From a virus, in the IMG/VR virus record IMGVR_UViG_3300037504_001427, positions 1 to 64,000 of that record: a DNA stretch of 64,000 bases; one strand, written 5' to 3'. This document shows positions 25,621 through 38,400 of the stretch, piece by piece (the stretch's first letter is position 1; each line of letters opens with the position of its first letter). Under the pieces are notes generated by a model, which saw only the letters and a list, made by a program, of their open reading frames with translations, searched no databases and was not told where the DNA came from. The position numbers and the translations under genes were made by a program.

Positions 25621-26088
25621 TCATGCAGTGCTCCGAGGGTCCACCACCATGATCTTGTTGATCCGTTCCGCCAGATCGGGGTGAATGATGGCCACCACGA
25701 TCTCCTGGTCCTCGATGGCAACCTTGGTCGAAACCATAGGGGTCTGGGCCGTCTGCCTAGCCGTCTCATAGGCGTCCAGGAGCGGCCCCAGGTCAGTCAT
25801 CATACCGTGTGTCCTCGGAGCGGCATCATCACGCGCGCACTTCCGCAGAGACGCTAGGTCGAAACGGGATACGGAGACGCCTTCCACGAATCCGCACCCG
25901 GCGACCCAGACGGTGCAGCACTGGTCACTCGCCGGCTGGTCCATAATGCGGACCTCGCGTCCGATCAGCGGGGCCCAGAAGGAATTGGCTCGATTCTGCT
26001 CGGTATCGGCCACGGGCGCACGCAAGATTTCTTTCCCGTGTGCGAAGCCGCAGCCGTAGTCGTTGCCACCGCCTACTGGATATCTCAT
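25621..26088 (-). CDS. hypothetical protein starting with the array leader MRYPVG
   Basis: MRYPVGGGNDYGCGF followed by unique sequence. Confidence 0.6.
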   Translation of the reverse strand: MRYPVGGGNDYGCGFAHGKEILRAPVADTEQNRANSFWAPLIGREVRIMDQPASDQCCTVWVAGCGFVEGVSVSRFDLASLRKCARDDAAPRTHGMMTDLGPLLDAYETARQTAQTPMVSTKVAIEDQEIVVAIIHPDLAERINKIMVVDPRSTA

Positions 26089-26282
26089 CGCCCCTCCACT
26101 GTGCCGCGGCCGTTGCCATAGCCAGCGCCGGTGCCGTAGCCGTAGCCGAAGCCGTAGCCGTCGCCGTAGCCGAAGCCGTAGCCGAAGCCGTAGCCGAAGC
26201 CGGCGCCGAAGCCGGCGCCGAAGCCGGCGCCGTCGCCGTGGCCGAAGCCGTGGCCGTAGCCGTAGCCTACTGGATATCTCAT
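26085..26282 (-). CDS. Gly-X repeat microprotein (representative unit)
   Basis: MRYPVG(GX)nGTVEGR; RBS ggagg; ATGA overlap at both ends. Confidence 0.7.
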   Translation of the reverse strand: MRYPVGYGYGHGFGHGDGAGFGAGFGAGFGYGFGYGFGYGDGYGFGYGYGTGAGYGNGRGTVEGR

Positions 26283-34758: not shown

Positions 34759-35435
34759 GAGGTGCCTCCTAGGCGAACCAAGAGTGGGTCAGGAATACCG
34801 GCCTCGGCAAAGCCCTTCGCCCGCAGTTGGCAGGCTGGGCACTGCCCGCAGGGCGGCACCTGGCCGTTATAGCAGGTGTGGCTGTGGGCCAGCAGATCCA
34901 GCGCGCCAACCTCTTGAGCCAGTCGCACCGAGTCGGCCTTGCTCAAGTGCATGAGCGGGGTGTGGATGGTGATGCCATGCTCCATCCCTGCACGGATGGT
35001 GCCTTGGAGCGACTGCATGGTGGTTTCCCGGCAATCCGGATAACCCGAGTAGTCGGTCTGACAGACGCCGGTAACCAGCTCGGTCACCTTAAGTTGGTAG
35101 GCCCAGGCAGCAGCAAGGGTCAAGAATACCAGGTTGCGGCCGGGGACGAAGGTGTTGGGCAGACCACGTTCAGATTCGTCACCCACCGATTGACCCTCAA
35201 CAGGATCGGAGTCGGCCAGCATGGCTGTTCCGCCGAGGGCAGCTAAGCTGCTGACGGGGACGATGCGGTGTTGAGTGACGCCTGCCTTTTCGGCAATGAT
35301 CTTGGCAGACTCTAGTTCGGCCCGATGACGCTGACCATAGTCGAAGGTGATAGCGTGCAGATTCTGGTAGCGGGAGCGCGCCCAGCCCAGACAAGTGGTC
35401 GAGTCCTGTCCGCCAGATAATACCACCACGATCAT
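34755..35435 (-). CDS. queC: 7-cyano-7-deazaguanine synthase
   Basis: SGGQDSTT, FDYGQRH, VPGRN, GYPDCR, TCY...CGQCPAC.LR. Confidence 0.95.
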   Translation of the reverse strand: MIVVVLSGGQDSTTCLGWARSRYQNLHAITFDYGQRHRAELESAKIIAEKAGVTQHRIVPVSSLAALGGTAMLADSDPVEGQSVGDESERGLPNTFVPGRNLVFLTLAAAWAYQLKVTELVTGVCQTDYSGYPDCRETTMQSLQGTIRAGMEHGITIHTPLMHLSKADSVRLAQEVGALDLLAHSHTCYNGQVPPCGQCPACQLRAKGFAEAGIPDPLLVRLGGTS

Positions 35436-38400
35436 CTATCTTCCCTCCACCGTGCTAATGCCGCCGCCGTGGCCGAAGCCAAAGCCGTGGCCGAAGCCGT
35501 AGCCGAAGCCGTGGCCGTCACCTACTGGATATCTCATCGCATCATCTCCAGGCCTCCACTGTGCCGTAGCCGTTGCCGTGGCCGTAGCCGTTGCCGTAGC
35601 CGTTGCCATAGCCGTCGCCGTAGCCGTAGCCGTAGCCGTTGCCGTAGCCGTCGCCGTAGCCGTAGCCGTCGCCGAAGCCGTCGCCGAAGCCGTAACCGTA
35701 ACCGTAGCCGTAGCCGTAGCCGTCGCCGAAGCCGTAGCCGTCGCCGAAGCCACCGCCGAAGCCGAAGCCGTAGCCGAAGCCGTGGCCGAAGCCGAAGCCG
35801 TCACCTACTGGATAGTTCATCGCCCACCTCCCACTGTGCCGAAGCCGTCACCTTCATCGCCCACCTCCCACTGTGCCGTAGCCATCGCCGTGGCCGTGGC
35901 CGTAGCCGTTGCCATGTCCTGCTGGATATCTCACCGCCTGCCGCCGGCCTCCTGATGTGGCTCAAAGAGGTAGACCTGCACCTCTGGTTCGCGCTCGAAG
36001 GCTGTCACGATCAGGGGTTTGACCTGCTGCCAGTTCAGCCCACCAAGGCCGCAGCCGAGTGGCGGAATGGCAATCGACTGAATCTGGAAGGTCTGCACGA
36101 CGGCAATCAGGTCATCCAGTCCGGTGGCGATGTCGTCCAGTTGGCTGCGCTGTCGCCAGTGGTCCTTGGTCGGGAAATTGATGATCAGCGGCGACTTGGC
36201 GCTGGTGTGCACGAACATCTTGCCCAGCTTGACCTGCCTCCGGTTGCAGGCGTCGCGGTAAGCAACGAAGTTGTCGGGCCAGGCATTCTTGAACTGGAGC
36301 GCCAGGCCCTTGCCCATCACGCCAACGGTGTTCACTGGGTTGACCAGCGCCTGAACCCGTGGTGCCCACGCCAAGATGTCGCCAGAGCAGGACTCGATCA
36401 CGGATACCTCATCGCCTGCCTGCCGCTGTGCCGAGCCCGTAGCCGTAGCCGTCGCCGGTGCCGTAGCCGGTGCCGTAGCCGGTGCCGTAGTCGGAGCCGG
36501 TGCCGGTGCTGTCGCCGTCGCCGTCGCCGTAGCCGTCGCCGAAGCCGTCGCCGAAGCCGTAGTCGGAGCCGTGGCCGTAGCCGTAGCCGTCGCCGAAGCC
36601 ACCGCCGAAGCCGAAGCCGTAGCCGAAGCCATAGCCGAAGCCGAAGCCGGCACCTACTGGGTATCTCATCGCCTGCCCGCCACTGTGCCGAGCCCGAAGC
36701 CGAAGCCGTATCCGTTGCCGAAGCCGTCGCCGTAGCCGTCGCCGCTGCTGTTGCCGTTGCCGTTGCCGTTGCCACCACCGAAGCCGTCGCCGTTGCCGAA
36801 GCCGTCGCCGAAGCCGTCGCCACTGCTGTTACCGCGACTGTCGCCGTTGCCGTTGCCGTTGCCGCAGCCGTAGCCGAAGCCGAAGCCGTCACCTACTGGA
36901 TATCTCATCGCATCATCTCCAGGCCTCCACTGTGCCGTGGCCGTGGCCGTAGCCGTTGCCGAAGCCGTCGCCGTCGCCGTAGCCGTCGCCGTTGCCGTTG
37001 CCGTAGCCGTCGCCGTCGCCGTAGCTGTCGCCGAAGCCGTATCCGTTGCCGAAGCCGTCGCCGTTGCCGTTGCCGTAGCCGTCGCCGTCGCCGTAGCCGT
37101 CGCCGTAGCTGTAGCCGTAGCTGTCGCCGTGGCCGTAACCGTAGCTGTCGCCGCTGCCGTCACCTACTGGATAGTTCATTGCCCACCTCCCATCCGTAGC
37201 CGTCACCTACTGGGTATCTCATCGCCTGCTCGCCGCTGTACCGAGCCCGAAGCCGAAGCCGTATCCGTTGCCGAAGCCGTCGCCGTAGCTGTCGCCGTAG
37301 CCGTTGCCGTTGCCGCGACTGTCGCCGTTGCCGTTATCGTTGCCGCAGCCGTAGCCGAAGCCGTAGCCGCCACCTACTGGATATCTCATCACCCACCTCC
37401 CACTGTGCCGTGGCCGTTGCCGTTGCCGTCGATGTCGCCGTAGCCGTTGCCGTAGCCGGCGCCGAAGCCGTAGCCGTAGCCGAAGCCGGCGCCGTCGCCG
37501 GAACCGTCGCCGAAACCGTCGCCGAAGCCGGAGCCTTCGCCGTCGCCGTCGCCGTCGCCGTAGCCGTAGCCGTCGCCGTAGCCGTCGCTGTCACCGAAGC
37601 CGTCGCCGAAGCCGAAGCCGCAGCCGTCACCTACTGGATATCTCATCGCATCATCTCCAGGCCTCCACTGTGCCGTGGCCGTAGCCGTTGCCGTTGCCGA
37701 AGCCGTAGCCGAAGCCGTAGCCGAAGCCGTGGCCGTAGTCGGAGCCGTAGCCGGTGCCGTAGCCGTAGCCGTAGTCGTCGCCGAAGCCGCCAAATCCGTC
37801 GCCGAAGCCGCCGCCGCCGTAACTGTCGCCGAAGTCGGAGCCGTCGCCGAAGCCGTAGCCGTCGCCGAAGCCACCGCCGAAGCCGAAGCCGTAGCCGAAG
37901 CCGTAGCCGAAACCGAAGCCGTCACCTACTGGATAGTTCATCGCCCACCTCCCACTGTGCCGTGACCGTTGCCGTTGCCGTCGATGTCGTCGTAGCCGTG
38001 GCCGAAGCCGAAGCCGTAACCGTAGCACGCCGGCAGGCGCATCGCAAAAACGGTGAATGATGCGTCGCCGAAGTCGTAGCCGAAGCCGCAGCCGTAGCCG
38101 AAGCCGTCGCCAAAGCTGTAGCCGTAGCCGTAGCCGTCGCCGAAGCCGAAGCCGCAGCCGTCACCTACTGGATATCTCACCACCTGCCCTCCACCGTGTC
38201 GTAGCCGCAGCCGTCGCCGTCGCCGAAGCCGCAGCCGTAACTGTCGCCGTAGCCGAAGCCGTGGCCGTTGCCGTCGCCGTTGCCACCACCTACTGGATAT
38301 CTCATCGCCCACTTCCAACTGTGCCGTGGCCGCGGCCGTTGCTGTTGCCGCAGCCGTAGCCATCGCCGTCGCCGTCGCCGTAGCCGTAGCCGTCGCCGTA

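Follow-up and report, generated by a model that had tools for sequence, protein, structure and literature searches.

The DNA analyzed here (the window) comprises bases 1-64000 of the 87,639-bp IMG/VR virus record IMGVR_UViG_3300037504_001427, which is bounded by direct terminal repeats and represents an uncultured phage of ~88 kb. On the minus strand, the window carries an operon (25621..38532, delimited by a gene walk and by junction matches) in which ~40 translationally chained micro-genes of one family, called Gly-X here, are interspersed with accessory genes (the cargo) and in which neighboring genes are linked by a short repeated sequence, the junction. It is fairly probable that ordinary recombination at this much-repeated translation signal joined the accessory genes to the Gly-X chain and that the junction has no dedicated role as a recombination site. 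Nine of the 11 cargo borders in the main array were located within ~20 nt of a junction ATG, and if borders were placed at random in units of ~230 nt, the binomial P of such clustering would be ~2e-5 at p=0.2; the border positions are our own reading.

The Gly-X units start with MRYPVG and end with GTVEGR or a close variant, and neighbors overlap by ATGA. Most of the chain proteins have 40-110 residues, in which Gly alternates with Tyr, Phe, Asp, Asn, His or Cys. All units and cargo genes share a single orientation, reading from 38532 down to 25621. Upstream of the chain, an AT-rich divergent intergenic region (38600..39190) lies between the array and a D5-type primase gene, and it is presumed to be the promoter region of the operon. 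A sigma-70 consensus match was not reported in this region, and promoter-like or terminator-like sites inside the operon, as judged by consensus matches, were no commoner than in shuffled sequence.

The junction is ~34 nt long and nearly identical between units, and consists of the GTVEGR codons with a GGAGG, the ATGA overlap and the MRYPVG codons (e.g., 27303..27336, minus strand). Its core, TGAGATATCC, occurs 29 times in the window with at most one mismatch, always on the minus strand, where 2.1 occurrences would be expected. With a looser pattern, the whole 87.6-kb record yielded 43 junction copies, all of them in minus-strand orientation and some in the blocks at 73-80 kb; the same pattern also gave one unrelated match at 17184. 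The operon at 25.6-38.5 kb contains 33 copies. The codons of the junction are rare in the backbone, where AGA makes up 4.5% of the Arg codons, GTA 8% of the Val codons and CCA 14% of the Pro codons. The Tyr codon of the junction is TAT in 41 of the 43 copies, and TAT accounts for only 6% of the Tyr codons in the unit bodies. Rare codons ending in A or T would be the usual signature of an open region for ribosome loading. When six junction strands were folded as DNA, no gain over shuffled sequences and no stable hairpin were obtained, five strands being worse than the shuffles (z of +0.7 to +2.0) and one slightly better (-0.7). In the distal blocks, the MRYPVG peptide is preserved by synonymous changes (AGG, CCG, GTC, GTG). 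Because the junction is unstructured, uses unusual codons and is conserved as protein, the view that it is foremost a coding and translation element, i.e., a ribosome-relay signal, is well supported. The sequence-only reading had described it as a ready-made ribosome-binding site, and this agrees with the GGAGG, the ATGA overlap, the rare A/T-ending codons and the lack of structure, as well as with the mini-open reading frames (mini-ORFs) MRYP-stop, MTVERGR-stop and MMR-stop, which maintain the stop/start overlaps and keep the cargo coupled.

The same reading had noticed that unrelated genes begin or end with junction sequence. This proved correct for all of the named non-array genes, each of which abuts a junction, and the pattern exceeds chance by far. 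The cargo includes the Pfam families Macro, QueC, FolE2, DUF6884+TGT (DpdA) and PAPS_reduct. The macrodomain gene (35931..36401, minus strand; Pfam Macro, E 1.4e-21) starts with a GTG that is overlapped by the TGA of a four-codon junction remnant, the mini-ORF MRYP-stop (36398..36412, minus strand), in which an AGA-to-AGG change creates GAGG 5 nt before the GTG. At its other end, the final codons (..AGGRR) and the stop belong to a junction, GGCAGGCG-GTGA-GATATCC, so that both ends are as had been described. A 19-nt junction repeat, with two mismatches between its copies, lies on either side of the gene. Further along the chain, a truncated unit of 33 amino acids that ends with ISTVEGR-TAG (35436..35537, minus strand) is immediately followed by the ATG of queC (34755..35435, minus strand; 7-cyano-7-deazaguanine synthase; Pfam QueC, E 9.5e-74), again in accordance with the earlier description. 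The downstream folE2 (33976..34758, minus strand; GTP cyclohydrolase IB; Pfam GCHY-1, E 1.5e-91) has a GTGA overlap with queC and shares 57% identity with its counterpart from a marine dpd-like cluster.

The next two genes have chimeric ends. The DUF6884-DpdA fusion gene (31979..33979, minus strand; assigned by Pfam, with eight homologues) retains homology to its eight relatives as far as ..SWIDE, after which junction-derived WPR and a stop codon follow, and the relatives are ~20 residues longer. As had been claimed, this end lies within GGCCGCG-ATGA, whose ATG opens the PAPS-reductase-like gene of the PP-loop family (30891..31982, minus strand; Pfam E 4.6e-15). The latter starts with MRYPGDG and ends with HTVEGRDEISSR by reading through a junction, because a junction variant that is 2 nt longer puts the usual TGA out of frame. 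Among the 150 homologues listed of 1022 (E <=0.001), the best-matching stretch never begins before residue 11 of the query; it mostly ends at residues 344-349 and never extends past residue 356 of 363. A perfect 20-nt direct repeat, GGCCGCGATGAGATATCCAG, flanks this gene (left copy 31970..31989, right copy 30898..30917, both on the minus strand). Its CCGCG variant, a 2-nt insertion, is absent from every other junction copy, and the two flanks of the PAPS-reductase-like gene are therefore sister copies. Such sister flanks are expected from junction-for-junction exchange, from duplication on insertion or from local gene conversion. A perfect 20-nt repeat also encloses the mini-unit and the ORFan that follow (30842-30910 and 30004-30813, respectively). 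A variant that the macrodomain and tRNA inserts share at their left ends was considered as well; consisting of a single base, it was too weak to use.

The remaining cargo of the main array consists of ORFans and a tRNA. A truncated mini-unit of 22 amino acids (30842..30910, minus strand), recognized from the sequence and the gene walk, comes after the PAPS-reductase-like gene. It is followed by an ORFan of 186 amino acids that continues in frame into a complete Gly-X unit with its own ATG at 30255 (30004..30813, minus strand) and for which no Pfam or PHROG match was found. Three units separate this fusion from the tRNA insert, in which a CA microsatellite precedes a tRNA-Met (CAT) gene (29125..29197, minus strand; ARAGORN; Rfam, 65 bits). 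An ORFan of 88 amino acids (28841..29107, minus strand) lies 3' of the tRNA, and at the right border of the insert the left junction half forms the seven-codon mini-ORF MTVERGR-stop (28821..28844, minus strand), which overlaps both the stop of the ORFan and the start of the next unit. For this insert (28825-29230), the reported junction halves on both sides were found, one running to ATGAG and the other being ACAGTGGAG..GGCG-ATGA. The junction ATG at 29233 also opens a frame of 130 codons that takes in the CA microsatellite and the entire tRNA-Met gene and runs on, in frame, into the 88-amino-acid ORFan (28841-29233). The last gene of the chain (25621..26088, minus strand; gene walk) has 15 unit codons fused to an ORFan body of 140 amino acids; it starts with MRYPVGGGNDYGCGF and then continues as non-repeat protein, as had been stated.

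Taken over all borders, the positions at which junction homology ends or begins vary. At the left borders, counted from the ATG, it extends to +4 (dcm78, in a distal block), +5 (the tRNA insert), +11, +13, ~+45 and +66 nt. At the right borders it begins from -6 to ~-17 nt before the ATG, and at ~-45 nt in the case of dcm76. Of the earlier proposal that the junction acts as a recombination hotspot, the part that concerns recombination at or beside the junction agrees with the chimeric ends, the 19-20-nt repeats, the private variant and the clustering of borders; the breakpoints do not fall at one position. The sequence features of these borders lend indirect support to the view that recombination at or beside the junction shaped them, and it is from such features that we infer recombination at the junction as the mechanism.

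Several results weigh against this explanation. The two borders of the queC-dpdA block have only ATGA and a degenerate resemblance in common. The clustering of borders could stem from selection alone, without any hotspot, if only joints at gene boundaries survive. GTGA/ATGA overlaps also couple the boundaries queC/folE2 and folE2/dpdA inside the cargo, and overlap coupling is therefore a general habit of this genome. The composition of the cargo is indistinguishable from that of the backbone, and nothing therefore marks the cargo as recent or foreign. Finally, no relative with the array was found in IMG/VR, in the GTDB species genomes or, by means of the primase, in the protein collection, and since no relative shares the array, gain, loss or exchange of cargo was not seen. 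In IMG/VR, the exact 18-nt junction matched its own record only, and the primase as bait in the protein collection retrieved no close relative, the best homologues being 29% and 27% identical. One Gly-X unit used as a protein query gave no match at E <= 1e-3, which is no evidence of absence, as a query of such low complexity is probably not scored properly. Two other sets of matches were rejected as due to chance, i.e., two matches of the degenerate MRYPVGDG pattern in IMG/VR, which belong to M23-peptidase-like genes, and three single matches of the exact junction in the GTDB species genomes.

As for composition, the sequence-only reading had pointed out that part of the cargo is lower in GC content. 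The difference is real, with 55% at 31-33 kb, only in comparison with the GGC-rich array, and it disappears against the backbone. The GC content was 54.3% in the PAPS-reductase-like gene and 56.9% in dpdA, compared with 54.4% in polA, 56.5% in the primase gene and 56.9% in the helicase gene, and the trinucleotide distances of the cargo fall within the range of the backbone. Low GC content was consequently rejected as a sign of foreign origin.

Since the array is highly repetitive and its sequence was present in one sample only, the assembler could in principle have stitched unrelated genes into it. One public run contains the sequence of the record, a tidal-flat metagenome that is probably the source sample, and assembled Logan contigs of this run were used for the check; such contigs hide rare deletion or circle forms. 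The borders of the macrodomain gene, queC, the PAPS-reductase-like gene and the tRNA insert were bridged at ~70x. A single contig (35812-36455) covers the macrodomain gene with both of its borders, and other independent contigs cover the tRNA insert with both borders (28774-29273), the queC border (34123-35543) and both borders of the PAPS-reductase-like gene (30232-34152). Depth across the cargo was even, at 69-76x, and the borders are in frame and keep their stop/start overlaps, unlike chance misjoins. The mosaic is therefore not the artefact of one assembler, though the data come from the same sample, and an origin by misassembly is barely credible. Other joints listed from the Logan contigs have short sides with foreign letters between them and resemble cross-mapping of other units.

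The two halves of the junction have counterparts in other phages. A gene of 87 amino acids, present in a single copy outside the window (record 76740-77003, minus strand) and with no Pfam or PHROG match, has homologues with 42-52% identity in seven other viral contigs (L095, L071, L054, L052, L031, L102 and L081). In all seven, a Gly-X gene lies -10 to +71 nt from the stop of the homologue and starts with M..[RH]PVG[YN]G (e.g., M..RPVGYG), and some of these partner-linked genes end with GT..R(R). The array units carry the same N-terminal motif and C-terminal tail, their ..PVG[YD]G motif and basic GT(V)..R(R) tail matching those of the seven contigs. The junction halves are thus the conserved protein termini of a wider phage Gly-X microprotein family, fused by head-to-tail amplification; being conserved as protein termini, they need not be a recombination site. 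The 87-amino-acid family, whose profile was compared with that of DUF6948, is not assigned to DUF6948 here and seems to represent an additional kind of Gly-X partner. Gly-X arrays with their own, unrelated junctions were found in other viral contigs (L066:1660-2971; L018:798-1985; L022, minus strand, ~13500-14415; L130:9361-10038; L127:4229-4987), and DUF6948 genes adjoin the arrays of L066 and L130. The L066 junction, which is 80 nt long and perfectly conserved, was searched for comparison and matched only the L066 contig itself. Elsewhere, the small partner is directly followed by 1-5 Gly-X copies without embedded cargo (1-2 copies behind the 87-amino-acid partner), whereas the present phage has dozens of copies in three blocks, its partner cut off by a dcm gene and DNA-modification genes interspersed.

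This separation bears on the direction of events. Either the array took up cargo or units were amplified into an older early operon, and most borders fit both directions equally. In the phage studied here, the 87-amino-acid gene is separated from the Gly-X units by a hairpin, followed by a T run, and by the 1.6-kb dcm76, a cytosine methyltransferase gene; the 3' border of the dcm76 insert falls within the tail of a unit, immediately ahead of a junction. Judged from gene order, the position of dcm76 between two genes that are adjacent in seven of seven other contigs favors insertion of cargo. From the stop of the 87-amino-acid gene, four tandem TGAC repeats are followed by the long GC-rich hairpin and the T run (record 76633-76745, minus strand), and this hairpin looks like a terminator. 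In total, two more junction blocks with their own cargo lie outside the window, at 73-80 kb of the record (72800-80800). Their cargo comprises two C5 cytosine methyltransferase genes (dcm76 and dcm78) and a weakly SprT-like ORF, and two fusions were observed, one of a helix-turn-helix domain with a Gly-X unit (record 80150-80776) and the other of a third methyltransferase-like ORF with a unit (record 72811-73965).

The opposite history would need no hotspot. The accessory genes would have been resident in an early operon, the Gly-X units would have been amplified into the gene boundaries, and selection would have determined which joints survived. The cargo does match the backbone in GC content and trinucleotides, and its genes are coupled to each other by ATGA/GTGA overlaps. 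Between dpdA and the PAPS-reductase-like gene there is just a junction and no unit, with the C-terminus of DpdA clipped. Moreover, the Gly-X family has 1-2 copies elsewhere, and the extreme copy number is therefore derived here. The unit bodies have diverged while the junctions are identical, a single pair of segments longer than 90 nt reaching 88% identity. This is the sole long duplication of the array (37605-37962 vs 35496-35841, minus strand; 358 nt, 88%), and it spans a MNYPVG unit, a longer type of junction with the MMR-stop mini-ORF and the start of the next unit. Against such a history stand dcm76, which splits the partner/Gly-X pair in the manner of a cargo insertion, and the private 20-nt repeat on both sides of the PAPS-reductase-like gene, a lone gene, which fits junction-for-junction exchange or duplication on insertion. 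In addition, truncated and frameshifted units cluster beside cargo, while the cargo-free run at 26-28.5 kb is regular. Decayed units beside cargo were observed at 35801-35934 and 37160-37222 (minus strand), one being a unit of 26 amino acids and the others frameshifted mini-units that run through the next junction and end with ..ELSSR. With these points on both sides, the reverse history is a possible though rather unlikely alternative.

If ordinary recombination did join the cargo to the chain, the course of events might have been as follows. Head-to-tail amplification of the Gly-X family would have repeated the ribosome relay ~43 times in the record. The many near-identical copies of 17-34 nt in one orientation would then have allowed recombination, whether homologous, microhomology-assisted or illegitimate, to join genes at or within ~20 nt of the overlap. 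The genes joined in this way would be the macrodomain gene, queC-folE2-dpdA, the PAPS-reductase-like gene, the tRNA and the ORFans, together with the two dcm genes outside the window. Selection would have kept only those joints that preserved the relay, and selection of this kind would leave junction-derived first and last codons, mini-ORF relays and short direct repeats flanking the cargo. A stronger version, in which the array is an integrase-free capture platform whose one-junction genes are inserted, expressed by the relay, excised as circles and passed between co-infecting phages, so that it serves as a fast-changing store of DNA-modification and anti-defence genes, is improbable.

The cargo includes DNA-modification genes and, probably, anti-defence genes. 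The 7-deazaguanine set (folE2, queC and DpdA; 31979-35435) is incomplete. QueD (PF01242) was not found anywhere in the record, and queE was not found in the 31979-35435 block; in one marine dpd-like cluster (L011), queD and queE lie between queC and folE2. The closest DpdA homologues are 72% identical and occur in marine dpd-like clusters without Gly-X genes. The downstream ORF of these clusters is unrelated to the PAPS-reductase-like gene. Another DpdA homologue (P0013, 56% identical) has a Gly-X-like C-terminal tail, ..GFGGGTGSGRGDGSGNG, which may mark a further case of DpdA being joined with a Gly-X gene. No Gly-X gene was found within 6 kb of the PAPS-reductase-like homologues at 25 other viral loci, and the association of PAPS-reductase-like and Gly-X genes is therefore lineage-specific.

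If exchange at the junction is real, it would let phages reassort their genes against restriction (7-deazaguanine, cytosine methylation, macrodomain) with no recombinase devoted to the task. Even if the cargo is immobile, the operon presents an amplified microprotein family that imposes its own start and stop codons on neighboring enzymes, as well as a natural example of a long-range ribosome relay through mini-ORFs, and the locus links uncharacterized phage Gly-X proteins to DNA-modification genes.

Among known systems, integrons resemble the operon in their one-way promoterless array, expressed from one upstream end and with a repeat at every boundary. The chain studied here is likewise promoterless and in one orientation, with a common upstream end at which a promoter is presumed. 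A dedicated site-specific cassette system, in which a recombinase cuts and joins junctions to capture and release promoterless cassettes, would accord with units and cargo that all point the same way from one upstream control region, with junction repeats flanking the cargo and with the 6-bp palindrome GATATC in the junction. A candidate enzyme is encoded as well, a single-copy serine recombinase (21986..22867, minus strand; Pfam Resolvase, E 4.9e-22; PHROG integrase/invertase), which is the only recombinase found in the record and lies ~2.8 kb past the end of the array. However, this gene does not adjoin the array, its orientation is not the one seen in integrons, and nothing was found that ties the enzyme, earlier suggested as a possible driver of the process, to the array. 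The breakpoints differ between cargos, from +4 to +66 nt on the left and from -6 to -45 nt on the right. Apart from the palindrome, no wider dyad symmetry, such as paired serine recombinase sites have around a central dinucleotide, was seen by eye, and there is no hairpin. The tyrosine recombinase profile PF00589 gave no match in the 87.6-kb record and scored in all control genomes. Moreover, the junction halves are kept as protein termini in distant phages. A dedicated site-specific system is thus very unlikely. Integrons have IntI and a folded attC, neither of which was found here, and exchange at one fixed position, where the breakpoints here are variable; their cassettes are unrelated, whereas most of the units here are paralogues of one family. 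The array had earlier been described as integron-like, though without an IntI; it shows no attC-like hairpin, no tyrosine integrase and no constant breakpoints, and gene gain and loss in a strictly integron-like form is unlikely.

Two more general processes are related. In mosaic phage genomes, joints come to lie at gene ends through illegitimate or short-homology recombination and subsequent selection, and in gene accordions, tandem amplification via unequal crossing-over expands one family head to tail. The present operon differs from these in that its joints reuse one motif of 17-34 nt and leave motif codons on unrelated genes, and in the size of the amplified family, with ~40 members within the window and, over the whole record, ~43 copies of the junction.

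The closest known system is the modular shuffling mediated by promoter-early stem-loop (PeSL) cassettes in the hyperplastic regions of T4-type phages (Arbiol et al. 2010, PMC2839356; Comeau et al. 2014, PMC4122927). Recombination between PeSL copies is given as the explanation for insertions, deletions and replacements and can yield mini-circles (PMC2839356). For PeSLs, shuffling is reported to have been demonstrated between close relatives, with circles detected. Both systems have a short regulatory motif in many same-orientation copies among small non-essential or accessory genes, and in the operon studied here direct repeats flank accessory genes. The PeSL is an intergenic transcription signal composed of an early promoter and a terminator hairpin. 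In contrast, the junction is a translation signal (Shine-Dalgarno sequence and ATGA) situated inside conserved protein termini, unstructured and without a promoter match. If the junction does mediate exchange, it would be the translation-level counterpart of the transcription-level PeSL cassettes.

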